Shown here one piece after another: positions 1,002 to 62,782 of a DNA stretch of 64,000 nucleotides. Made by a program: the position numbers and the translations under genes. Each line of letters starts with the position of its first letter. Position 1 is the first letter of the stretch. The notes beneath the pieces are model-generated. The model was not told the origin of the DNA. It was given only the letters and a program-made list of their open reading frames with translations, and made no database searches. Source of the stretch: a virus; the IMG/VR virus record IMGVR_UViG_3300031519_004866; one strand, given 5' to 3'.

Positions 1002-1039
1002 ACTACTATTTATTCCTTTACGCAGAAAAGCTGTTTTCG

Positions 1040-21967: not shown

Positions 21968-22006
21968 ATAGTTACTTATGTGCGTAGTTAACTTATAAAT
22001 AGTAAT

Positions 22007-36037: not shown

Positions 36038-36113
36038 TGGTGCCGGCAGCAAGATTCGAACTCGCGACCTATGGTTTACAAAACCATTGCTCTACCAACT
36101 GAGCTATGCCGGC
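36038..36113 (-). tRNA. trnT: tRNA-Thr(UGU)
   Basis: GCCGGCA acceptor stem, D-arm AGCTCAGTTGGTAGAGC, anticodon arm ATGGT-TTTGTAA-ACCAT, GTTCGAATC, encoded CCA; 76 nt. Confidence 0.95.
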
Positions 36114-40807: not shown

Positions 40808-42859
40808 TTACTTGGTCGTTGCAATGAAAACTCCATTCCAATCTTCAGGTAAGTCTTGTGTCTTTTGGAATTCACAACGTTCTATCCACATTGTATAATA
40901 GCCTTCTAATTGACCACTAAAGTGTCTTTTTAGTTTTTCACAAATCCAAATTGCTTCATCAAACTTTTGAGCTCTATATGCTTCATACATACGCTGGTGC
41001 ATGTTTTGGCTTTTATATTCAGCTTTTGTGCCTTTAACGTCTAGCACTGTCCATATCCCAATGCCTACAGTTTTTCCTTTAACTGCTAGGTCGTCTATCT
41101 TTAAGTAGAAGAAGTCGTCTTTAGTAGTTTGGTATGTCGCATCTCCAACAAGTAATACACATCCGTACTCTTTACATTTGCTTTCAATACGAGCGGCTGT
41201 ACTAACTGCATCTCCGAGGACATCATAACTGTGTCGGGCTGTTGAACCCATCTCGCCAAGATAGCCAAGACCAGTATTAATGCCAGCCCCCATACCCACT
41301 GGGGGTCTTCCTTCTTTGGTAATCTTATCATTAAATATCTCCACTGCTTTTAACATATCCAATCCACATTGTACCGCCGTTCTAGGATGATGTGGATCTT
41401 CAATTGGTGCATTGTGTATGTGCATACTTGCGTCACCAATATACTTAATAACCATACCGTCTGCATCTAGTATGGGCTGTGTAATAGCGTCCATGTAGCC
41501 ATTCATAATTTTAGTTAGGCCTTTTACATCATCACCAAATGATTCACCTAGTGGAGTAAAGCCTCTTAGGTCTGAGAAACAAATTGAAACTTCTTTCTTC
41601 ATACCGTCTTTGATTAGTTCAGGATTTTCTTGTAGTAGTCTTACTACTGTTGGTGATGCATATCCAGCGAACTGTTTCTTAATTGCTTGTTTTTGGAAAT
41701 ACTCGTTTACAAATCGGTTAAACACTGCATGAAAGCCAACAAATGTACTTACTAGTAGTACCCAACTAACGTCCCATAGCTGTAACTGCCCTTTAAACAG
41801 CGTGTAAGCACCGTACAAGCACGTTGCATATATCACAAGTAGCAATGCTCCAACTACATAATACGGTGCAAAAACAGCAGCAATTATAAGAATAACACCA
41901 ATTGCAATAGATGCAATGTACTCTACAAATGTAGCATAATCAAAACGTACAATGTTATCTCCACTAATAATAGTTTGGAGAGCTGTTGCTCCTGCAACAT
42001 GACTATACATTTCTCCTTTTGGAGTACCAATCACACCTCCTAGTCCTTCTGCTGTTATACCAATAATAACAGTTTTTCCTGCTAGACTAGAGTAGTCTTC
42101 ATTTGCAGCACTAAGTGTGCTAAACTCTTTATTCCAACGCAACCAAATTCTAGCATTTGGGTCTGTTTTAATAGTTGCATACGCAGGAACTCGTAACGCA
42201 ATAATTCCGCCTGGTCCTGTTTTAACTTGATAACTAGGATCTCCAACAGCAACTCTAATAGTTTCTAATGCAATTGCAGGATATACTTCTTCTCCTACTC
42301 TCATCAACAATGGCATACGTCTTACAACACCATCGATCTCTGGAGCAGTATTAATAACACCAACACCAGCAGCAACATCGCCTAACTCAGGTATAGGTCC
42401 AAGCATGCCTGGCCACTCAAATAACCAAGGAAACGGATCTCCTATTTTAGCAACACCTCTTGGCACTGCATTTTTGTTTGTTTGAGTTGTTCCTACTTGT
42501 GCAATAACAACACCGTTGTCTTTAAGTGCAAAAACTAAATCGTTGTCGCCTTGCAATCTATCTGACTCAGAAAACAGTATTGGCATTACAATAATACCAG
42601 CGCCTGCTTCTCGCAATTTGTAAATAATATCTGCTAGTACATCACGCTTCCAAGGCCACTGTCCGTATTGCTGTATAGACGCTTCGTCTATTTCTAGTAT
42701 TGCAACATCTTGAGATTGTTCTGGAGTGTCGTACTGTTGTATAAGATCAAATGACTTCAGTCGCATTGTTTCTTTAACAAAAGGATCATTAAATCCTAAA
42801 ATGCTAATAACAGCCAATGTAATTACTGCTGTGAACCAATGTGTAATATATTTGCCCAT
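40808..42859 (-). CDS. CHASE2-domain class III adenylate/guanylate cyclase
   Basis: N-terminal TM; IDEASIQQYGQWPWKR and DGVVRR (CHASE2); three TMs; FSDLRGFT, KYIGDA, GAGINTG, YDVLGDAVSTAARIE. Confidence 0.93.
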   Translation of the reverse strand: MGKYITHWFTAVITLAVISILGFNDPFVKETMRLKSFDLIQQYDTPEQSQDVAILEIDEASIQQYGQWPWKRDVLADIIYKLREAGAGIIVMPILFSESDRLQGDNDLVFALKDNGVVIAQVGTTQTNKNAVPRGVAKIGDPFPWLFEWPGMLGPIPELGDVAAGVGVINTAPEIDGVVRRMPLLMRVGEEVYPAIALETIRVAVGDPSYQVKTGPGGIIALRVPAYATIKTDPNARIWLRWNKEFSTLSAANEDYSSLAGKTVIIGITAEGLGGVIGTPKGEMYSHVAGATALQTIISGDNIVRFDYATFVEYIASIAIGVILIIAAVFAPYYVVGALLLVIYATCLYGAYTLFKGQLQLWDVSWVLLVSTFVGFHAVFNRFVNEYFQKQAIKKQFAGYASPTVVRLLQENPELIKDGMKKEVSICFSDLRGFTPLGESFGDDVKGLTKIMNGYMDAITQPILDADGMVIKYIGDASMHIHNAPIEDPHHPRTAVQCGLDMLKAVEIFNDKITKEGRPPVGMGAGINTGLGYLGEMGSTARHSYDVLGDAVSTAARIESKCKEYGCVLLVGDATYQTTKDDFFYLKIDDLAVKGKTVGIGIWTVLDVKGTKAEYKSQNMHQRMYEAYRAQKFDEAIWICEKLKRHFSGQLEGYYTMWIERCEFQKTQDLPEDWNGVFIATTK

Positions 42860-42869
42860 ACTGTATTTA

Positions 42870-43088
42870 TTAATGATCGTACACGTTAGGACCGTCTTGT
42901 ACTTTTACAGGCTTACAATATGCTGTAAGTCTATGTTCTTCTGGTACTAGATAACTGTGGTCATAGTTTCCGTACTGTCTTGGTATACGTACAGCATAAT
43001 ATTGGCAAACATCAATGCTTCTAAAGTACATAGGACTAGGTTGTTGCTTGCCTGCTATTAATACTACTAACATAAATGCATGTATCAA
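42870..43088 (-). CDS. Hypothetical small protein (possibly exported)
   Basis: Hydrophobic N-terminus, two Cys (DVCQ...AYCKP). Confidence 0.55.
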   Translation of the reverse strand: MIHAFMLVVLIAGKQQPSPMYFRSIDVCQYYAVRIPRQYGNYDHSYLVPEEHRLTAYCKPVKVQDGPNVYDH

Positions 43089-43571
43089 TTATATCATTCC
43101 TTTTGCTTTTGCTATAAAATACACAATGCCAAACAGTATTGCACAACCTGCTAACATTAGTGCAATAATTGCTACTCCGTTTACAAATGCTTGTCTAGCT
43201 TCTGCTGCTGCATATACTTGTTTCTGTCGGTCAGCACGTATCTTACGTTGCATCTCTTTTAGTTCGTCCCAGGTGCCAAAGCCAAAACGCATGTTTAGCA
43301 TTTGCTGTAGTTCTAGTTGCATCTCCAGAACTTTCTTTTCATGGATTAATAGATTCAGTGCTTCTTCTTCGACTGACCCTGCAGCCAAAAGTTTTCTGAA
43401 TATAGGAGGGTTCTTTTGCATCTCCTTTCCTTTACGGAAGTCAGATACTGCACTGTACCATTTGCCCATTTGCCCCATGCAGTTTTCAAAATCTTGACCT
43501 GCGTGTACAAATTTCTTAATCGTATTAAATGCCGTGGTGGCTGCTGCTACTGCTGTAAACGGATCTATCAT
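43089..43571 (-). CDS. Hypothetical membrane protein
   Basis: MIDPFTAVAAAT... and a C-terminal TM helix; GGAG SD. Confidence 0.65.
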   Translation of the reverse strand: MIDPFTAVAAATTAFNTIKKFVHAGQDFENCMGQMGKWYSAVSDFRKGKEMQKNPPIFRKLLAAGSVEEEALNLLIHEKKVLEMQLELQQMLNMRFGFGTWDELKEMQRKIRADRQKQVYAAAEARQAFVNGVAIIALMLAGCAILFGIVYFIAKAKGMI

Positions 43572-43600
43572 TGTCGCTCCTTCCGTCTGTTCAGCTGTAT

Positions 43601-43735
43601 TTATGTGTTTCTTTTAGGTTTGGGGGATCTCTTCTTGCTACGTTTTTTAATTATCTGTAGTGTTGATAAATGTTTATCTTCTTCGTGCTGACGCAATAAC
43701 TTTTCTATATGTTTTTGAAATTCTTTGTCAGTCAT
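43601..43735 (-). CDS. Small basic hypothetical protein (44 aa)
   Basis: Manual translation MTDKEFQKHIEKLLRQHEEDKHLSTLQIIKKRSKKRSPKPKRNT; ATG directly follows the curlin stop. Confidence 0.35.
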   Translation of the reverse strand: MTDKEFQKHIEKLLRQHEEDKHLSTLQIIKKRSKKRSPKPKRNT

Positions 43736-44599
43736 TTAGTATTGAGTAACAGTAACCGCACATCCACCTAATGTAACACAACTTCCAGTTAGACTGTAAG
43801 TTTGTGCATTTGCTGAATTTTGTGTAGTTGATATATTGTATCCGCCACCGTTGTTAGTAAGGTCTAGTGTAAGACTGTGTGCGCCGTACATACCGCCACG
43901 TTGTACACCTGTCACTGTATGATCATCTCCAGTTAATACTATGTCTGCAAAGTGTGTTGCTGTATTTCTTTGTTCAAGAGTAACACTATTGTCATTGCCG
44001 TCTATCTCAACAAACCCCATCTTCTTACCATCAGCATATTGTAAATGGCTTAAGAAGTTTCTATCGCCGTCTATGATATGTGCCATGTGATGATCTGAAC
44101 TTGTTCCATTACTGTTTACTTGAGATGTAATAACATTATTATCATCGCCTAGTACGGTTATGTACTGTTCAAATTCGCCACTGTCATTACCATCAATTGA
44201 CCCATCTATCTTCTTGCCTTGTCGTGCGTCTATTGTATTGTTATTACCAACTATAGTGCCTCTCATAAAACTGTTGTCAGCACTACCACCTTGGTATGTA
44301 GTTATAGTATTAGAATTTCCGTAAACGTATCCTTGAACAACCATATCATCGCCCTGTTGGGTAAATGTCATAGTATTATTATTTCCAGTAAGAGGTACTG
44401 TACTATTAGGCACTCCTCCAATATAATTGTTTTCACCTGACTGTGTAACATCTAACTCAAAGTTGTTGCCAACTTGATCCATGTATATGTCATTAGCCAT
44501 ACAGGTTTGTGCTGAAAAGTACAGTAACATAACTAGTATACCTAGGTGTGTTCCGGTTATTTTATTTTTGAATGATATCAATTTCGTTGCTCCCGTCAC
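43736..44599 (-). CDS. Curlin-repeat (CsgA/CsgB-like) secreted protein
   Basis: Signal-like segment, then NDIYMDQVG and repeated G(N/D)xNxxxxxQxG beta-arch units; true start uncertain (e.g. 44530). Confidence 0.75.
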   Translation of the reverse strand: MTGATKLISFKNKITGTHLGILVMLLYFSAQTCMANDIYMDQVGNNFELDVTQSGENNYIGGVPNSTVPLTGNNNTMTFTQQGDDMVVQGYVYGNSNTITTYQGGSADNSFMRGTIVGNNNTIDARQGKKIDGSIDGNDSGEFEQYITVLGDDNNVITSQVNSNGTSSDHHMAHIIDGDRNFLSHLQYADGKKMGFVEIDGNDNSVTLEQRNTATHFADIVLTGDDHTVTGVQRGGMYGAHSLTLDLTNNGGGYNISTTQNSANAQTYSLTGSCVTLGGCAVTVTQY

Positions 44600-45674
44600 C
44601 TAGTTGAAATTCTCTAAATTCAAAATCTGATTGTTGTAGATTAATGTTATAACCATTTTGTTGATCTAATAATAGTTCAACTGTCATGCCTGTGCCACTG
44701 TCTCTTTTAAATAACCAACTTGGTGCTTGGTTGTAAATTTCAATTCCTGTTACTGGATCTTTTCCGTAAGTAAGTTTTCCAGACTTTTGATTCAATGCTC
44801 CACTTAACACCATTGCTAACATTTCGTTAAGTTGATCAAGTACGTTTGCTAAAAAGTTTTGATCTAAATAGTTCATGTCTAAGCCTGTTTGCCAAATGTC
44901 TGTAGTTTGTTCATCTAGATAGTTAATATCCAATCCGTCAAATTCTAAATAATCAAATCCTAAAAAGTCTGCTAAGTCTTTGGCTCTTTCTATTTCTAGT
45001 TCTAGTTTAAGTGCTTTGGGCTTACGTATGATTAACAAGTTATCTATCAATCGTTCATTAATGTCAATAATAATCGGCTTCAAAGGGTTACTCTTAGGTG
45101 TGTCTACAACAGTTGCTTGGAACGCTTGATTAAGTATTACCGTGCCAATGTCTGATGTTACTTCAATTTCGCCTACCACGCATATACGCTTTACTCCAAT
45201 TGCAGAACAACTTGGAAGTAAGACAATAGTTGAAGAACCAGTTTCGTCTACTGTCATAGTAAAGTCTGTTCCACGAACACCAATACTAGCTGTTGGTGTT
45301 GAAATCTTTATGTCTTGCCTGCTGTTTTTAGCAATTTGTCCTGAGGCGTAACGTATAGTTCCGAATGATGCTTTTAATGCTAGTTTACCTGTTGAAGTAG
45401 CTGGGTCATACACAAACTCATCAATTATTAGTTTACTGTTTTGTGTTACATCAACTCGAGTTTCATCTAGAAACTGAATAGCAGTCTTACCTTGGCCTGT
45501 CTTAATAGTGTCATAACTTACTACATCACTACCTTTTTGTGCTTTCAGTGATTCACCAGCTTTTCTCTCAATAACAGTGTTACCAACTTGTTGAGTCACT
45601 GCACCAATACTATCAGATGCGGCCCTCGCTGGAGAGATCATAATTATACATAAGAAAAGCCAACGGAAAAACAT
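44562..45674 (-). CDS. FecR-domain periplasmic protein
   Basis: Signal peptide; DTIKTG.GKTAIQFLDET, IKISTPTASIGVRGTDF...VD..G. Confidence 0.88.
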   Translation of the reverse strand: MFFRWLFLCIIMISPARAASDSIGAVTQQVGNTVIERKAGESLKAQKGSDVVSYDTIKTGQGKTAIQFLDETRVDVTQNSKLIIDEFVYDPATSTGKLALKASFGTIRYASGQIAKNSRQDIKISTPTASIGVRGTDFTMTVDETGSSTIVLLPSCSAIGVKRICVVGEIEVTSDIGTVILNQAFQATVVDTPKSNPLKPIIIDINERLIDNLLIIRKPKALKLELEIERAKDLADFLGFDYLEFDGLDINYLDEQTTDIWQTGLDMNYLDQNFLANVLDQLNEMLAMVLSGALNQKSGKLTYGKDPVTGIEIYNQAPSWLFKRDSGTGMTVELLLDQQNGYNINLQQSDFEFREFQLGDGSNEIDIIQK

Positions 45675-46444
45675 CAGTCAGTCTGCGTAATGTCTACAGT
45701 TGCATCGTTGCCAACAGTTGTTAAGTTAATAGTTTTATCTTCAACACCTGATTGCGTAATGTTTACTATGCTACCGCCACCCTTCTGATTAAAAATTAAA
45801 CTATGTCCGTTAATATCGCCAGCGCCTGACTGTGTAACGTTTACAGTATTAGCAACTCCACTTTCTACTGAAGATGCAGTGCTTGTAGTACCACCTATTC
45901 CTACTCCAGTAAGTGCAGTTGAACCATCGTTGCTTAAATCGTAATCCATGTCGCCGTTTGCAGCTTCAAGGATAAAGATAAAAGTATCTTGGTTACTTGC
46001 GTTCGCAATATCAATAGTACCTACAAAGTTAGCAGCATCGCTATTATCACCAATGGTTGCTGTTAGGTCAACTGAACTACCAGTTACATCAATACTTAAA
46101 CTTACAGTTTCACAGTTGGTTCCACCAGTGCTATCACAGTCCAAATCAACTGTGTTGCTGTTACCAACTAGATTAATGTTACCCGTATATGTATTACCAT
46201 TGATCTGAGTTTTGATTATATTAGTATCTCCTTGTTGTACCACGGAGAAGGTCATGTTGTTTCCTGTAAGGATCACTCCTTGTGTAGTTGTACCAAGTAT
46301 GTTATTAGTACCATCTTGTGTTACGTCTAGATCTAGATCGTTACCTGACTGTTGAATGTATATGTCATTCGCGAACACCGGCAGAGTTCCTAATCCAAAA
46401 CCAAACATTAAAAGACTACTTGCTACTAGGGTCTTTATTTTCAT
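45674..46444 (-). CDS. Curlin-repeat (CsgA/CsgB-like) secreted protein
   Basis: Signal peptide ending VFA; NDIYIQQSGNDLDLDVTQDGTNN and further NxxxxxQxG repeats. Confidence 0.75.
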   Translation of the reverse strand: MKIKTLVASSLLMFGFGLGTLPVFANDIYIQQSGNDLDLDVTQDGTNNILGTTTQGVILTGNNMTFSVVQQGDTNIIKTQINGNTYTGNINLVGNSNTVDLDCDSTGGTNCETVSLSIDVTGSSVDLTATIGDNSDAANFVGTIDIANASNQDTFIFILEAANGDMDYDLSNDGSTALTGVGIGGTTSTASSVESGVANTVNVTQSGAGDINGHSLIFNQKGGGSIVNITQSGVEDKTINLTTVGNDATVDITQTD

Positions 46445-47444
46445 TTTCGCTCCCTTGTCCAATCATAGTGGACAATTGTTTAATTTTCGGGTCATCATGC
46501 CAACACATGTCATCTTTATTACAATAGTAATCTGTTACGCCTGGAAATGCTAGTTTAAATTCCGGTTCTGGTAATTTAATTATTGCATCACTGCGTTGAT
46601 CTACTGTAGGTTTTGATGTCGGTATTGTCATCTCTACTTCTACGTTCTCTTTCACGAAGTCCCAAAGTTTTTGTTTTCTTCCTTTGTTAATCAATTCGAC
46701 TATTGCAGCTTCTATCGCTGTTCTAACTGCATAATTAGTCGGTTCATTTACTGCTGCGCCTACTTCTACTTCTATTGCCTTAGTGCCCATGTCTAAGAAA
46801 CGAAATACATCGCCTCCACTACTATAACTTGCGATCTTTTTCTCAGTTGCAACAGTTAAAAGTATCTCTCCTGTTTGCGTACTAATAAGTCGCATTGCTA
46901 CCGTGACTTGGTCTGTTCTATAACTAGTTTGCCCGCCTATGCCAAAGTATCTAGCACCTGCGCCACCGCTTTCAATATTAGAATCATACCCAACTACTGC
47001 ACCTTCTAATAACAAACCTGCAAACGTCATCGGCTTAAGATCTGTAGGATTTGTTTCATAAACTTCTCTAGTACTTCTTATCAATTGTCTTTCTTTTACT
47101 AGATTATCTAACCCTACACGCTCTACTACCGTAAACCAAGTTCCTCCGCCTACTTCTTTCAAAGCATTAATAACCCAAACTTCTGATCCCTGTGTAACCG
47201 CACTGCTAAGTTGGCTAAAAGAATCGTTTGCTTTACGTTGCCCTGTTTTATCTATAAAACTATAAACGGCTATAGTGATCTTCGGCCCATTAATTGGTGG
47301 AACCGTGTCAAGAACACTTTGGTACGGGCTAACTGCTGCAACGGGTGCAGACCAGTCTTGTTTAGTATAGGTTGCAGCACAACCTTGTAATGCTATGCCA
47401 AACAATAGTACCAATATATTTTTAAACATAACATTCTTGATCAA
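46416..47444 (-). CDS. csgG: Curli secretion channel lipoprotein
   Basis: Lipobox LQGC; AVYSFIDKTGQRK, SSAVTQG, WFTVVERVGLDNLVKERQLIRSTR, GYDSN...GGAGARYFGIG; start possibly 47429. Confidence 0.92.
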   Translation of the reverse strand: MIKNVMFKNILVLLFGIALQGCAATYTKQDWSAPVAAVSPYQSVLDTVPPINGPKITIAVYSFIDKTGQRKANDSFSQLSSAVTQGSEVWVINALKEVGGGTWFTVVERVGLDNLVKERQLIRSTREVYETNPTDLKPMTFAGLLLEGAVVGYDSNIESGGAGARYFGIGGQTSYRTDQVTVAMRLISTQTGEILLTVATEKKIASYSSGGDVFRFLDMGTKAIEVEVGAAVNEPTNYAVRTAIEAAIVELINKGRKQKLWDFVKENVEVEMTIPTSKPTVDQRSDAIIKLPEPEFKLAFPGVTDYYCNKDDMCWHDDPKIKQLSTMIGQGSENENKDPSSK

Positions 47445-47899
47445 AATCCAAATCCTTGTAGTGGTACCGTTATGGTTGTAACACTGCCGTCTTCTTCAGT
47501 AATTGTAATAGAGATAGTATCAGCTGATACATCCTTGAGCCAGTATATAGTGGCCCCTTCTATTTCGGCAGTGCCAGATAATGCACCATTGTCAGCGAAC
47601 ATATTATCAACCATCTGCTTGGATAATTGTGCATATATTCTTGACTCAACGTTGTTAAGAAACTTAGCCAAGTTAGTTGACTCTTCTTCTCTTTTCGCTT
47701 TGGCGGCATCAGCTGCGGCTTTTTCCTTAATATCTTGTTTACGTGTGAACTGTAACTGTTCAATACTAAGTACATGGCTCGAATAACCTAGACCACTAAA
47801 GGAGGGATTCTTAAATGTGAAGACTTCGTCACCGCCATGTGCGGCAGATGATGTCGCTAACACACCTAACAGAAATATTTTAAATATACCTTGTTTCAT
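47441..47899 (-). CDS. csgF: Curli assembly component
   Basis: Signal peptide; VFTFKNPSFSG.G, FLNNVESRIYAQLS, ITITEEDGSVTTITVP. Confidence 0.85.
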   Translation of the reverse strand: MKQGIFKIFLLGVLATSSAAHGGDEVFTFKNPSFSGLGYSSHVLSIEQLQFTRKQDIKEKAAADAAKAKREEESTNLAKFLNNVESRIYAQLSKQMVDNMFADNGALSGTAEIEGATIYWLKDVSADTISITITEEDGSVTTITVPLQGFGF

Positions 47900-48079
47900 A
47901 AATCGCTCCTGCAGTTATTAGGAAATACATCAGTATTTAACCGAAGTATTTCATTTCTTTCTAACTACATACATATTTATCTTTTCTGGTGTAAAAATAT
48001 TTACACCCAGCCCTTATAACTCAACATTTTTTTAAGTTACGTGTCGTAACAAATAAATACTAGTAGCAAAGGAATAAAC

Positions 48080-48322: not shown

Positions 48323-49417
48323 CTATTCTTGAGGACGGCTTGTAGTCTCAATATGTGTTTGAGGATAAATGTTCCTATACTCGCCACTAATTGGATACGC
48401 TGTACTTGAGTGTAATCTTAGCCCGCCTTTATTAAGCGAAGCATTATCAGTAAAGAAGATTAATGTATAAGGATTTTTCGTTAAATCAATCATTAAGATA
48501 CCTACATCTTCTACTTTAACATTAATATAATTTTCTAAGTTTGCTACAGCATAACGCTGTTTTGCTTGACCGGTATTGCCCATCATAATTGCATCAACTA
48601 TTGGGCCTGCTGCATTTGGTAACGCTGGAAAGATTTCTTTCATTACAGGAGTAAGTAGCTGTTTCATCTTTTGCTTAGACTCTGGTGGTATAGCTGAGGC
48701 TAATTTAATTAATCCTGCAATACTAATTCCTGTACCTGATTCAACTTTTTGTTCTTTAATTTCAACATCGAATGTTTTCTTAAAAAAGTTTGCAGCTGGA
48801 ACATAGTTTGATGTAGGTTTAACTTGTTGATCATGGAAACGTCCTGCTCCACCTTCTCTAGTTTTTACTTCAACACTGCCAACGCCTTCAATATTTAAAT
48901 CACCTTTGCCTGCTTTGCCAATCTTCTTACTAAACACTGAAAGTAGGAACTCACCTTTACCTTGCCCTAAGAACGAGATCTGAGCAAGATCGTCTGTCAT
49001 TTCTTTAATAGCAGGGTTAGCGTTATATCCAACAATAATATCTTCAACAGTGTGGGCGCCTGGTGTTACAAGTTTTTTAACATCAACTAACTGATCATTC
49101 TTCCAAGCAGTTAACATTGCTTGTTTATCTTTAGGATCAGCTTCTAAACTCATAAAGTATTTTGCTAAGAGCTTTTGTGCTTTGTTTACTTCAGCATCAG
49201 CAATTGTTGCCAGCGACTGTTTAACCATTTCTACACGACTACCAGCACCAATGCTTTGCAGCAGTTCTTCAATTTCTTGTAAGACTTTTTGTGTTTGTGG
49301 ATCAGTAGGAAGTTCTTTAATCTTACTTGCCAAGCTGGATTTAAGATTTTCAAGATCTGGACTATCTCGCAGATCTTCGCTATCAGTAACTTCAATTAAA
49401 AATTCAAATGCTCTCAT
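48323..49417 (-). CDS. Hypothetical protein with PD-(D/E)xK nuclease-like motif
   Basis: GKGEFLL...GDLNI...VEVK; start at ATG 49417, 5 nt after TAAATA. Confidence 0.5.
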   Translation of the reverse strand: MRAFEFLIEVTDSEDLRDSPDLENLKSSLASKIKELPTDPQTQKVLQEIEELLQSIGAGSRVEMVKQSLATIADAEVNKAQKLLAKYFMSLEADPKDKQAMLTAWKNDQLVDVKKLVTPGAHTVEDIIVGYNANPAIKEMTDDLAQISFLGQGKGEFLLSVFSKKIGKAGKGDLNIEGVGSVEVKTREGGAGRFHDQQVKPTSNYVPAANFFKKTFDVEIKEQKVESGTGISIAGLIKLASAIPPESKQKMKQLLTPVMKEIFPALPNAAGPIVDAIMMGNTGQAKQRYAVANLENYINVKVEDVGILMIDLTKNPYTLIFFTDNASLNKGGLRLHSSTAYPISGEYRNIYPQTHIETTSRPQE

Positions 49418-49425
49418 ACTATTAT

Positions 49426-50121
49426 TTATCCTAGTTTTGGAAATAACATATCTGTGCAAAACTTGTCTACATCAGCTTCGTTAAGACCTAGGCTTTTCAT
49501 AGTACGTGGTGTGTGGGGATTTTGTTGCTGGTTGTGACAATAATAGTTTTGGCATCCTGCTGTAATGGCTGGATCTGCATAGCCTGTAAACTCTTTAATT
49601 TCAGAAAAATATGCACGTAGGTTATCTAATGCTAGATCAACAATTGCAGTTGCTTCTTCTTCACTAGCAACGTTACCAGCAGCGATCATACTGTCAGTAA
49701 AAATATTTGTAGCCCATTCAGGCAATGCACGTTTTTTGCTAGGAATAAATTCTGCTACTGCTTCTTTGTAGCCTTCTATCATAGGATGGTCATCACCGCC
49801 ACTACTAGCACTAAAGTCATGGAATGCACCAGTCATCTTACGCTTACCTGAAATAACATCAAAGCCGTATATAGGACCGTCATTAGTTAGTACAGGAAAC
49901 ACACATACATGCATCATCCACAAGCCTTTAGACTCACGAGCATCTACTACATCAATATGCGCTCTACGCACATGATCGTTTTTCCAAACTCTGTTAACCC
50001 AAGTGTCGTTGTTAAAGTGTGCTAATCCTGGCTCGTCAAACTCTACAGCGTTCTCATTAAATATATTAATAATTTCATTCTTACAATCGATTAAACGATC
50101 CCAAATTACACTTTCACTCAC
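49426..50121 (-). CDS. pcyX: Ferredoxin-dependent bilin reductase (PcyX/PcyA-like)
   Basis: RRAHIDVVD, MMHVCVFP, PIYGFDVI, GAFHDFS, LPEWA..IF, QQQNPHT; directly downstream of the heme oxygenase. Confidence 0.85.
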   Translation of the reverse strand: MSESVIWDRLIDCKNEIINIFNENAVEFDEPGLAHFNNDTWVNRVWKNDHVRRAHIDVVDARESKGLWMMHVCVFPVLTNDGPIYGFDVISGKRKMTGAFHDFSASSGGDDHPMIEGYKEAVAEFIPSKKRALPEWATNIFTDSMIAAGNVASEEEATAIVDLALDNLRAYFSEIKEFTGYADPAITAGCQNYYCHNQQQNPHTPRTMKSLGLNEADVDKFCTDMLFPKLG

Positions 50122-50659
50122 CCTTTTTATGCTCCATCAATTCTTTGAATAGTTCAGTGGCAAAATCAAAACATACCTTAGCTTCGTCTGCCATGTTGTC
50201 GTTACATTTAGCTCTAATCTTTTCTTTATAATCGTTAATGTCACAATCAAATTTATACATGTTGCCTTCACCTGGTACACGTTTAGCAATCATTTGACCG
50301 CCACTCAGGTCGCCCATGTGTCTAACATAGATGTGTGCCATAAGTCTATTTGGATCATTCATGATCTCTTTTAGATACATCACATACTTGTGAGTTGTTT
50401 TAAGTGTTGGAGGACGATCTTCGTGTTTCCAAAGCTCTAAGAAGTCTGCCATAATAGCTTTAGACCTTATTAGTTGTGGTACATCGTCAAACAAACTATG
50501 TTGTTGGCCCATAAGTTCTAATAGCTCGTATGCTGGAAATTGATTCCACAAATACAATGCATAAAACTCAGGTTCAATGTTTCCACCGAACATAACTTTT
50601 ACAAATTCTTGTCGTTCAGCGTTAGTGTGATTTTCTTTTGTTAGTTCTTTTAAGCTCAT
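50114..50659 (-). CDS. hemO: Heme oxygenase
   Basis: LKELTKENHTNAE (proximal His), AHIYVRHMGDLSGGQMI. Confidence 0.92.
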   Translation of the reverse strand: MSLKELTKENHTNAERQEFVKVMFGGNIEPEFYALYLWNQFPAYELLELMGQQHSLFDDVPQLIRSKAIMADFLELWKHEDRPPTLKTTHKYVMYLKEIMNDPNRLMAHIYVRHMGDLSGGQMIAKRVPGEGNMYKFDCDINDYKEKIRAKCNDNMADEAKVCFDFATELFKELMEHKKGE

Positions 50660-50694
50660 TTGGCACCTCAGTATTAATTATAACAGTAGTTATC

Positions 50695-51000
50695 TTATTG
50701 TTCTTCTATAGTAACTCTAAGTGGAGATCCAAATTTTCTAGCAATTTTAGTTGATTGCAATGCTCTTTCTTCTGCAATTTCAAACGGATATGGTCCCATA
50801 GCAGCAGCACCAAAATTGTGTATTTCTAGTGTTTTCTTTTTTGCTTGTTCTTTTTCCATTTTAAATACACTAAGAAGAATATCAATTACTAATTCCATAG
50901 GTGTTACATCATCGTTAAGGAATACTACGGTCCACAATCGAGGCATCTCTACATCAATTTCAACTCGTTCATCAATAATTGCGTCTGTCTTATTACTCAT
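50695..51000 (-). CDS. clpS: N-degron adaptor ClpS
   Basis: VVFLNDDVTPMELV, LEIHNFG.A, EIAEE, PLRVTIE. Confidence 0.9.
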   Translation of the reverse strand: MSNKTDAIIDERVEIDVEMPRLWTVVFLNDDVTPMELVIDILLSVFKMEKEQAKKKTLEIHNFGAAAMGPYPFEIAEERALQSTKIARKFGSPLRVTIEEQ

Positions 51001-51023
51001 TATTTCCCTCTCTTAACACTCTT

Positions 51024-51051
51024 AAAAGCGGGGGAGGTATTTCACTCCCCC
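51024..51051 (-). terminator. Intrinsic terminator after hsp20
   Basis: GGGGGAG-8 nt-CTCCCCC stem followed by GCTTTT. Confidence 0.7.
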
Positions 51052-51062
51052 TAGACACGATG

Positions 51063-51515
51063 TTACTTGCCTTCGATAGTAAGACCATCTTTGATCTTAA
51101 TTGTTTTAGGTTTTAATGCTTCTGGAACTTCACGCTTTAGGTGTACATTAAGCATACCTAGTTCTAGTGTTGCGCCTTCAACATTAACATGGTCAGCAAG
51201 TGTAAACTCTCTGCGGAAGTTACGTCCGCCGATACCCTTGTGTAGGTAGTTTACATCTTCGTCTCCTTTCGGAGCAGTTCCTTCAATCTTTAGTTGATCA
51301 CCATCTTTGGTAATCTCAAGATTGTCCATACTAAAGCCAGCCACAGCGACTGAGATCATATACTCGTCTTCGTTGACTTGTGCGATGTTGTATGGAGGGT
51401 AACCATTTCCATTTGGACTATTTGCAAAGCCTCTTTCGAGTTCATTGAATAGTCTGTCAAAGCCGATTGTAGCTCTGTGGAATTGTGGTAGGTCTAGAGT
51501 TGTTATTCTTGTCAT
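51063..51515 (-). CDS. Small heat-shock protein (Hsp20/IbpA family)
   Basis: IGFDRLF, YPPYNI, AVAGF, YLHKGIGGRNFRREFTLAD, GMLNVHL. Confidence 0.95.
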   Translation of the reverse strand: MTRITTLDLPQFHRATIGFDRLFNELERGFANSPNGNGYPPYNIAQVNEDEYMISVAVAGFSMDNLEITKDGDQLKIEGTAPKGDEDVNYLHKGIGGRNFRREFTLADHVNVEGATLELGMLNVHLKREVPEALKPKTIKIKDGLTIEGK

Positions 51516-61981: not shown

Positions 61982-62056
61982 TGGCATGCGAGCAGGGATT
62001 CGAACCCCGACTAACGGTTTTGGAGACCGCTGTGCTACCATTAACACCACTCACAT
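61982..62056 (-). tRNA. trnW: tRNA-Trp(CCA)
   Basis: ATGTGAG/CTCGCAT acceptor stem, anticodon arm GCGGT-CTCCAAA-ACCGT, GGTTCGAATCC, discriminator G, encoded CCA. Confidence 0.92.
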
Positions 62057-62430: not shown

Positions 62431-62717
62431 AAGTGCAACTTTTCTGTTGCCAGGTAAGTTGCCAACCCCTACGTGCTTAGTTAGACTAAGCCGCTAATGC
62501 CATTCCTGGCGCTGTATTTGCGTTTGCATTTACAAAGTTTGTTCGCGGTAACGGCGCTTACATCCCGGTAACTCCACTAACTCTATTAAACACCAGTCGA
62601 TCCTGTGTCGCCCCCATCAAAAATACATTCACAGTTTAATAGCAGAATGTATTTTTGGTGGAGGCGTCGGGTACTGCCCCCGAGTCCTGTATGCCGTTTG
62701 AATTGCTTCAACGTTAC
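62431..62717 (-). ncRNA. ssrA: Permuted two-piece tmRNA (alphaproteobacterial type)
   Basis: Acceptor piece ends CGCCTCCACCA at 62656, then a hairpin spacer, then coding piece starting GGGGGCG at 62615; G3.U70 pair; tag ORF 62527-62486 = ANANTAPGMALAA*; outer ends approximate. Confidence 0.9.
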
Positions 62718-62759
62718 GATAGTATTTATAATATAACATCAAGCGAGCAACAAGTCAAG

Positions 62760-62782
62760 AAAAAAGGGCCGAAGCCCTTTTT
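62760..62782. terminator. Bidirectional intrinsic terminator
   Basis: AAAAAAGGGC-CGAA-GCCCTTTTT; UUCG tetraloop on the minus strand, downstream of cspA. Confidence 0.8.

Follow-up and report, generated by a model that had tools for sequence, protein, structure and literature searches.

The 64,000-nt stretch of viral DNA analyzed here (IMG/VR record IMGVR_UViG_3300031519_004866; hereafter the window, in which all coordinates are positions) carries a run of co-oriented genes encoding CsgF, CsgG, a curlin-like protein (Cur1), a FecR-fold protein, a second curlin-like protein (Cur2), small open reading frames (ORFs), and a membrane nucleotide cyclase with a CHASE2 domain. Gene content, shared orientation, and phage context (CsgF-CsgG-curlin-FecR-[curlin]-adenylate cyclase) identify this block as the published viral type VIII secretion system (T8SS), or curli region. 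Comparison with bacterial loci indicates that the block is a chimera, in which a bacterial FecR-CHASE2 sensor pair was grafted onto a minimal curli unit of alphaproteobacterial style, since FecR and CHASE2 cyclase genes are neighbors in bacteria of several phyla without curli genes. Our favored interpretation, in which we place somewhat less than even confidence, is that the chimera exports fibers and couples them to signaling by the cyclase.

Much of this region has been described before. In pelagimyophages, csgF and csgG were reported together with "curli-associated" genes, and "sibling capture" was proposed (Zaragoza-Solas et al. 2020, PMC7029224). Curli genes were also reported in OM43 phage Melnitz, where a lysis-timing pore was proposed and csgA/B were considered absent (Buchholz et al. 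2022, PMC9004378). In pelagiphages of the podo- and myoviral types, Wittmers et al. 2022 (PMC9599517) described the series CsgF-CsgG-CsgA/B-FecR-CsgA/B-adenylate cyclase. They detected cluster genes at each of the 65 GOV2 stations, inferred that the genes are alphaproteobacterial in origin, and stated that bacterial curli operons do not include FecR or a cyclase. The preliminary description of the window, made from its letters alone, was right to suspect that the curli part was known and underestimated the extent of publication, as the last of these papers covers FecR and the cyclase and includes a global survey. The window cluster has 72% nucleotide identity to that of Melnitz and 69% to that of Pelagibacter phage HTVC008M (KC465899). 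The records of both phages annotate the same genes in an order identical to that of the window, and 2 curlin-repeat proteins are annotated in the GenBank record of Melnitz.

Linkage of FecR and the CHASE2 cyclase in phages and bacteria

Linkage of the cyclase to the rest of the block was surveyed in 2 sets of viral loci. A close set of 80 loci was collected with the window FecR protein, and the cyclase was counted where at least 3.5 kb of downstream sequence was available; a divergent set of 80 loci was ranked on a distant FecR homolog, 37%-50% identical to that of the window. The cyclase is present in all 60 close loci with enough downstream DNA (inverted in 4 of them), and both CsgF and CsgG accompany FecR wherever the upstream DNA suffices (69 of 69 loci). 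Among the divergent loci, CsgG is found in 78 of 80 and the cyclase in 62, corresponding to 62/67 where the flanks suffice. Both sets together place the cyclase in 122 of the 127 viral loci with enough flanking DNA, so that in the synteny survey suggested by the preliminary description most loci keep the cyclase linked, and the linkage is not absolute.

Bacterial relatives were sought in a single genome for each prokaryotic species. There the phage FecR protein has full-length relatives only on contigs carrying the whole cluster, and genuine bacterial matches cover the N-terminal FecR domain only, at about 30%-38% identity. In at least 13 bacterial loci, 2 of which were checked with Pfam, a FecR-domain gene lies beside a full-length CHASE2 cyclase (28%-32% identity over the whole phage protein). 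These loci belong to metagenome-assembled genomes (MAGs) labeled Myxococcota, Omnitrophota, Deltaproteobacteria, Spirochaetales, Geobacter, Elusimicrobia, and Alphaproteobacteria. This bears out the earlier statement that CHASE2 cyclases often neighbor FecR proteins. A TPR protein is often present at the bacterial FecR-CHASE2 loci, CsgF or CsgG gave no match within 10 kb of them, and no bacterial locus joining CsgFG with FecR and CHASE2 was found in the survey. On the present evidence, the graft is confined to phages.

On the host side, a comparable pairing of FecR with CHASE2 occurs in SAR11 single-cell genomes (L157:3463-12886). There a chromosomal operon encodes PBP2, RodA, a CHASE2 protein with a PP2C phosphatase domain, a DUF2860 protein, a 190-aa FecR protein, and an uncharacterized gene product, with a convergent GAF-PP2C gene beside it. 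Pfam annotates DUF2860 as a domain of unknown function; we take it to be an outer-membrane barrel family.

The whole cluster also appears on contigs (L085-L094) assigned to MAGs under the names Pelagibacter, Flavobacteriaceae, Pirellulales, Rhodobacteraceae, Legionellales, Polynucleobacter, and Luteolibacter. The contig in the Luteolibacter bin (L092) was found to encode an endolysin, a phage ligase, and a clamp loader of the T4 type; no decisive genes were seen on L090. Most likely, these cluster-bearing contigs are mis-binned phage contigs, which could mislead searches for bacterial curli-FecR operons.

Organization of the operon

The operon is a single run on the minus strand from 47899 to 40808 in which genes abut or overlap, the csgF stop with the csgG start and the Cur1 stop with the FecR start (Table 1). 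ORF listing and Pfam searches confirmed the gene list of the preliminary description (csgF-csgG-curlin-fecR-curlin-small ORFs-CHASE2 cyclase). They also confirmed that it has no csgE, csgC, or csgD, as the ORFs scanned between 36 and 56 kb gave no Pfam match to CsgD, to the CsgE gate, or to the CsgC/CsgH chaperone. CsgE and CsgC/CsgH are likewise reported to be absent from all phage clusters and from alphaproteobacterial operons (Wittmers et al. 2022, PMC9599517). Export features are predicted by sequence throughout the core genes of the operon: CsgF, Cur1, FecR, and Cur2 each begin with a signal peptide, CsgG has a lipobox, and the cyclase has transmembrane segments.

Table 1. Features of the viral curli region and of the regulatory spacer upstream of it (positions in the window)
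Feature	Position	Strand	Evidence or remark
CsgF, 152 aa, N-terminal signal peptide	47441..47899	-	Pfam CsgF, E 2.8e-17, 128/132 profile positions
CsgG outer-membrane lipoprotein pore, 342 aa	46416..47444	-	Pfam CsgG, E 8e-49
Cur1, curlin-like protein 1, signal peptide and beta-solenoid	45674..46444	-	Curlin_rpt, 19.9 bits, in ORF 45674-46462
Exported FecR-fold protein, 370 aa	44562..45674	-	Pfam FecR, E 5.5e-11
Cur2, curlin-like protein 2, 287 aa, signal peptide, repeats, and C-terminal Cys pair	43736..44599	-	Curlin_rpt, 25.1 bits
44-aa basic ORF, doubtful gene	43601..43735	-	No family match, no tblastn relative
o160, conserved phage protein, C-terminal membrane anchor	43089..43571	-	phrog_32327, E 4.5e-10
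o72, small conserved protein, hydrophobic N-terminus	42870..43088	-	79%-90% identical in relatives
Membrane CHASE2 class III nucleotide cyclase, 683 aa	40808..42859	-	CHASE2, E 1.9e-40; Guanylate_cyc, E 8.8e-16
ATAAATA late-promoter-like core	47974..47980	-	75 nt upstream of csgF, 9 nt from palindrome
Perfect palindrome GTGTAAA-N4-TTTACAC, candidate operator	47989..48006	.	In the 180-nt csgF/HTH_8 spacer
Fis-type HTH_8 DNA-binding protein, 80 aa	48080..48322	+	Pfam HTH_8, E 1e-14; divergent from csgF

Secretion pore and curlin-like proteins

CsgF has an FxFxNPxF-type segment directly after its predicted cleavage site; a phmmer search with it against solved CsgF chains gave no match. CsgG aligns with the E. 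coli CsgG structures over residues 11-264 (E 1.5e-48), including the lipobox Cys. Its constriction-loop residues are unlike those of E. coli, and it carries a clade-specific C-terminal extension of about 75 aa.

The 2 curlin-like proteins lie on either side of the Pfam cut-off for Curlin_rpt (20.7 bits), Cur1 just below it and Cur2 above. Cur1 contains repeats of the Q-x-G-x-x-N type and ends in ...VDITQTD. Its AlphaFold2 (AF2) model is a regular strand-turn-strand solenoid throughout (predicted local distance difference test score, pLDDT, 79; predicted template modeling score, pTM, 0.76). The best structural match to this model by VIA is CsgA of Pontibacter korlensis (8C50; Z 14.9, 193 aligned residues, 19% identity, root mean square deviation [rmsd] 9.1), and Foldseek returned no match at E <= 0.001.

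Cur2 ends in ...VTVTQY and belongs to a family of 242-507 aa whose members have in common the C-terminal end C-x4-G-C-x-V-x-V-T-Q. A relative (L003) has 98.9% nucleotide identity to the window over 8.5 kb, but all similarity ends abruptly inside Cur2 at position 44481, which is the junction of the signal peptide and the mature part. This breakpoint indicates cassette replacement, which fits a role of Cur2 as an exposed, fast-evolving surface protein.

The FecR-fold protein

The FecR-fold protein consists of an 18-residue signal peptide, a beta domain of the FecR/CJM type (about residues 24-217), a low-confidence linker (about 220-300), and a small, six-stranded beta domain at the C-terminus (303-369), with a pLDDT of 78 for the AF2 model. 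By VIA, the FecR beta domain resembles the periplasmic domain of PupR (6OVK; Z 15.0, rmsd 2.6, 134 residues), of which it matches the CJM part alone (chain residues 111-249). It also resembles an anti-sigma factor from Bacteroidales (4M0N, Z 14.1). Its first half also matches a 76-residue cell-surface adhesin anchoring domain (5IX9, Z 11). The C-terminal domain had no structural match above Z 3.3, and an STN domain was not detected.

Despite its fold, the sequence indicates that this protein is not an anti-sigma factor, because it starts with a signal peptide, has its FecR domain from about residue 24 on, and has neither a cytoplasmic sigma-binding domain nor a membrane anchor. No extracytoplasmic function (ECF) sigma factor or TonB-dependent receptor was seen among the neighboring ORFs scanned, which are part of the window ORFs. 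The label "iron regulator" is thus unsupported for the phage protein.

A different connection is suggested by the C-terminal end. Cur1, Cur2, and FecR, which ends in ...IDIIQK, have in common the pattern [IV]x[IV]xQ, and just one further ORF among the 179 window ORFs of at least 60 aa ends in this way. The I-x-I-x-Q of FecR is at least 90% conserved in 35 homologs, and the pattern is invariant in 27 Cur1 homologs. The shared terminal strand may possibly be a docking strand, as opposed to a sign of homology.

The CHASE2 cyclase

The cyclase is composed of a transmembrane segment, a periplasmic CHASE2 domain (residues 15-323), a cluster of transmembrane segments, the cyclase domain (421-597), and a helical C-terminal tail of about 85 aa. 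Aligned to Pseudomonas aeruginosa CyaB (3R5G) and Slr1991 (2W01), it has 5 of 6 catalytic residues: both metal-binding Asp residues, the Lys, the Asp at the second specificity position, and the Arg.

A precedent for how such a protein might be used comes from Sinorhizobium meliloti. Its CHASE2 cyclases raise cAMP after the outer-membrane barrel NsrA perceives an extracellular protein (PMC13001267), and CyaD1 without its CHASE2 domain is constitutive (PMC5498481).

Small ORFs, regulator, and promoter cores

Two of the "three small ORFs" of the preliminary description, o160 and o72, are real genes conserved in relatives, while the third, the 44-aa ORF, is doubtful, since it has no relative and the corresponding gap in L289 is just 44 nt. 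The o160 protein is 43%-89% identical in loci L004-L006, L008, L010, L202, L226, L241, and L244; it travels with the cluster, and its position varies among relatives. PHROG and ESM Atlas searches for its function gave uncharacterized viral families only, those in ESM Atlas being virus-only hypothetical clusters. The o72 gene always adjoins o160 and was called as a gene in L290. An Rfam search gave no RNA family within the operon.

The gene divergent from csgF, which the preliminary description did not include, encodes a Fis-type helix-turn-helix (HTH) protein, homologs of which occupy the same position in L003, L004, L006, L007, L089, L289, L290, and about 15 further viral loci. The palindrome in the intervening spacer is the sole such site in the window, even with up to 2 mismatches allowed. 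An alignment with 4 divergent relatives shows the palindrome and the TAAATA upstream of csgF to be invariant, while the flanks have diverged. In the first 166 loci, the palindrome is confined to the 4 loci with the HTH_8 gene. It recurs in 3/3 loci found by HTH_8 similarity, and 15 of 119 viral contigs found by the palindrome alone encode an HTH_8 homolog (33%-55% identity) no more than about 100 nt away, which in almost every case faces csgF. HTH_8 was not found in the divergent set of 80 loci, so the regulator is clade-specific. These patterns make the HTH_8 protein a candidate dedicated regulator of the csgF operon.

In 2 further loci (L180:9620-10534 and L287:1999-3198), the HTH_8 gene and the palindrome face a different two-gene operon instead of csgF, encoding proteins of 179-183 aa and 678-689 aa without a Pfam family. 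Together, regulator gene and operator resemble a cassette that can be moved as one piece.

The heptamer ATAAATA is under-represented in the window (13 sites versus 29.6 +/- 5.9 expected) and is mostly found just upstream of gene starts. Three of the 13 copies are on the coding strand shortly before csgF, o160 (27 nt upstream), and the cyclase, and a second copy in the regulatory spacer (48053-48059, +) lies 21 nt upstream of HTH_8. The canonical T4 late promoter TATAAATA was also considered and occurs 3 times in the window, none of them at the operon. Scans of the operon for sigma-70 promoters and terminators gave counts no better than those in shuffled sequence. The "late-type TAAATA cores" noted earlier thus hold up as the shorter ATAAATA/TAAATA core, on the grounds of rarity, placement, and invariance, and do not extend to the canonical motif. 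This distribution gives some support to late-type expression with internal promoters.

Several ATAAATA copies end 4-10 nt before an ATG, from which near-leaderless late transcripts would follow; examples are at 21995-22001 (+), 1007-1013 (-), 49423-49429 (-), and 42864-42870 (-). The copy at 49423-49429 suggests that the true start of the gene at 48323-49459 is an internal Met, 14 codons in.

Proposed mechanism and alternative explanations

The favored interpretation can be laid out as a series of steps. The operon would be transcribed from the late-type ATAAATA cores, with the HTH_8 protein binding the palindrome and tuning transcription. The products would enter the host envelope, where CsgG and CsgF would export Cur1 and Cur2 to form surface fibers in which Cur2 would be the exposed, fast-swapping part. 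The FecR-fold protein would stay in the periplasm and bind curlin subunits or the pore via its curlin-like C-terminal strand. Contact of its FecR domain with the CHASE2 domain would then allow secretion or surface status to alter the synthesis of cyclic nucleotide monophosphates (cNMPs) in the cytoplasm. Such signaling across the envelope is plausible, since FecR and CHASE2 are neighbors in bacteria, S. meliloti offers a precedent, the cyclase is linked in 122/127 loci, and the presumably periplasmic FecR protein carries a curlin-like motif. The most elaborate version of this idea, to which we attach a low likelihood, is that phages have built the cassette as an outside-in sensor, which in this clade would be controlled by a Fis-like regulator and operator of its own. 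Here an external or secretion state, sensed by a fast-evolving curlin fiber or pore on the surface of the infected cell, would be read by FecR docking on curlin through the shared terminal strand, and FecR would act on the CHASE2 cyclase, whose product would reach a non-canonical receiver that adjusts infection, for example by delaying lysis upon superinfection or crowding.

A number of observations weigh against coupled fiber export and signaling. On the side of the fiber, the match of Cur1 to CsgA barely beats generic beta-helices (SufB/D-type and others, Z 14), and its rmsd is 9.1; moreover, no clumping of Melnitz-infected cells was seen (Buchholz et al. 2022, PMC9004378). The possibility that the C-terminal domain of FecR is homologous to the curlins was considered and rejected, as hhalign of the FecR and Cur1 families gave a probability of 1.7%; the shared C-terminal end is therefore a short motif. 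The window cyclase has Ser in place of the transition-state catalytic Asn (motif GDAVSTAARIES). This Ser variant, an Asp two turns earlier, and the added C-terminal tail mark a Melnitz-like clade (the window, Melnitz, and others, 49%-82% identity), while HTVC008M-like and bacterial homologs have Ser/Thr and Asn at those 2 positions. Decay of the enzyme is argued against by the conservation of all other catalytic residues. A receiver for the nucleotide is also hard to point to. No cNMP-binding (PF00027) or GAF (PF01590) domain was found in the complete genomes of Melnitz and HTVC008M or in 2 partial relatives. In 3 SAR11 genomes, a PF00211 search gave no class III cyclase, and a cNMP-binding domain was absent from 2 and represented by a borderline PF00027 match in the third. 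Finally, the cyclase is absent from 5/67 divergent loci despite ample flanks, is inverted or several kb away in some loci, and is reportedly missing from some podoviruses that carry FecR (Wittmers et al. 2022, PMC9599517). It follows that the secretion half can function with no cyclase present.

These last observations, including the podovirus clusters, are what one would expect under the main rival, which is possible though rather unlikely in our estimation: 2 independent functions that share a neighborhood and timing. The curli products would coat or aggregate infected cells, providing superinfection shielding or "sibling capture." FecR would do no more than stand in for CsgE, CsgC, and CsgH as an adaptor or chaperone of curlin in the periplasm, and the cyclase would be a separate host-takeover sensor that receives no input from secretion. 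It would also fit that separate ATAAATA cores precede the cyclase and o160, that the C-terminal motif of FecR is common to the curlins, and that CsgE, CsgC, and CsgH are absent. What speaks for a coupled system instead is that FecR and CHASE2 are neighbors in many bacteria without curli genes (see also PMC5192318), which points to CHASE2 as the ancestral partner of FecR, and that the cyclase has been kept in 122/127 loci across very divergent phages.

The remaining explanations fit the data less well. CsgG/CsgF could be a repurposed pore, a gated secretin or pinholin-like structure that times lysis or alters envelope permeability and forms no fiber, as suggested for Melnitz by Buchholz et al. 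2022 (PMC9004378). The lack of clumping in culture and the unusual constriction residues and C-terminal extension of CsgG would agree with this. We find it quite improbable, considering that the operon holds 2 conserved Sec-exported curlin-repeat proteins, as the Melnitz record does, that CsgG is an outer-membrane channel by which the inner membrane cannot be depolarized, and that no lysis gene adjoins the cluster in the window. Import of nutrients or cofactors through an ungated pore, with FecR as an iron or ferric-citrate regulator, is an option raised by Wittmers et al. 2022 (PMC9599517) that would explain the absence of the periplasmic gate CsgE and the hint at iron signaling in the Pfam name. 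It is very improbable given a FecR protein with a cleavable signal peptide instead of an anti-sigma domain and anchor, no STN-type domain detected in it, no ECF sigma factor or TonB-dependent receptor among the neighbors scanned, and bacterial relatives that pair with CHASE2 sensors, not iron transporters. That the curlin-like proteins are virion or tail-fiber parts and not secreted amyloid seems hardly credible: beta-solenoids are common in tailspikes, many of which are among the fold matches of Cur1, and Cur2 is hypervariable like receptor-binding proteins, but both proteins have N-terminal signal peptides and are encoded between csgG and a periplasmic protein gene, phage particles assemble in the cytoplasm, and the cluster lies away from structural genes.

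Source phage and genomic neighborhood

The source of the window is probably a jumbo phage of about 300 kb related to the pelagimyophages (HTVC008M) and to OM43 phage Melnitz. This size is indicated by contigs of 302-347 kb that carry proteins 75% identical to the window FecR and are syntenic with the window over at least 19 kb, and by a near-identical 39.5-kb record that CheckV scores as 14% complete. The flanks encode ClpP, ClpS, Hsp20, heme oxygenase, bilin reductase, IMP dehydrogenase, several radical-SAM enzymes, 2 tRNAs, and a permuted transfer-messenger RNA (tmRNA); ClpP, heme oxygenase, bilin reductase, the permuted tmRNA, and the synteny with phage contigs establish the phage context.

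Immediately upstream of the cluster, heme oxygenase, bilin reductase, ClpS, and Hsp20 follow in a row (49426-51515, -), ClpP and an HD-domain hydrolase lie on the downstream side, and this whole neighborhood is retained in the 300-kb relatives. The tmRNA is of the alphaproteobacterial permuted (two-piece) type (62432-62762, -; tag ANANTAPGMALAA), and the tRNAs are tRNA-Trp (61982-62056, -) and tRNA-Thr (36038-36113, -), which matches what is reported for Melnitz and pelagimyophages. Beyond the HTH_8 gene, a conserved protein of about 365 aa (48323-49459, -) has the same position in L003, L004, L006, and L289. It was rejected as a member of the cluster, having no family match and being separated from it by the divergent HTH gene.

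Comparison with known systems

The window cluster has the same genes in the same order as the published pelagiphage T8SS (PMC9599517, PMC7029224, PMC9004378, KC465899), and CsgE, CsgC, and CsgD are absent from both. It differs in the divergent Fis-type HTH gene with its palindrome, in the presence of o160 and o72 between the second curlin and the cyclase, and in its lineage of about 300 kb. The papers cited mention none of these features; in text searches, FecR and the cyclase were absent from PMC7029224 and PMC9004378, and HTH and CHASE from PMC9599517. With the curli systems of E. coli and of the alphaproteobacterial csgA/B/F/G type, the cluster has in common the CsgG lipoprotein pore, CsgF, and secreted curlin-type repeats ending in a ...x-V-x-V-x-Q strand. 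Unlike these, it lacks CsgE, CsgC/H, and CsgD, has different pore constriction residues, and has a FecR-fold gene inserted between the curlin genes. The phage curlins are also longer than bacterial ones (about 230-260 mature residues), with conserved Cys pairs and a weak Curlin_rpt match.

CyaD1, CyaD2, and CyaK of S. meliloti have the same CHASE2 plus class III architecture as the phage cyclase, CHASE2 being inhibitory there. The regulon of these cyclases includes a periplasmic FecR-domain protein, SMc02177, and outer-membrane NsrA acts upstream of the cyclase. In contrast to the phage block, the readout in S. meliloti is the CRP-type Clr and the outer-membrane partner is a barrel, not a CsgG pore; SMc02177 was reported to be dispensable for signal perception (PMC5498481). 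The FecR/PupR anti-sigma factors have the same periplasmic FecR (CJM) fold as the phage protein, which differs from them in lacking the cytoplasmic anti-sigma domain and the anchor and in ending in a small beta domain that seems to be of another kind than the STN domain, to which a TonB-dependent transducer binds. Finally, an exported FecR-domain protein is encoded beside a CHASE2 membrane sensor in the Burkholderia "BiofilmReg" response regulator (RR)/LysM-FecR/CHASE2 kinase system (PMC5192318) and in the SAR11 operon. The outputs there are a kinase or a PP2C phosphatase, not a cyclase, and no curli genes are present.

Implications

The value of this window is modest, since the block had already been published. 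It adds that FecR-CHASE2 appears to be a bacterial unit grafted onto curli, that the iron label of FecR is unsupported, that this clade may have a private regulator and operator, and that the second curlin is, by all appearances, a swapped cassette. These 4 additions sharpen testable hypotheses and leave the overall picture unchanged. Phages bearing the cassette are globally abundant, and the cells that they infect gain a secretion system and a cyclase that the likely hosts lack. If fibers are indeed displayed and signaling takes place, phages would be equipping some of the most numerous bacteria of the ocean with a sense organ in the envelope.

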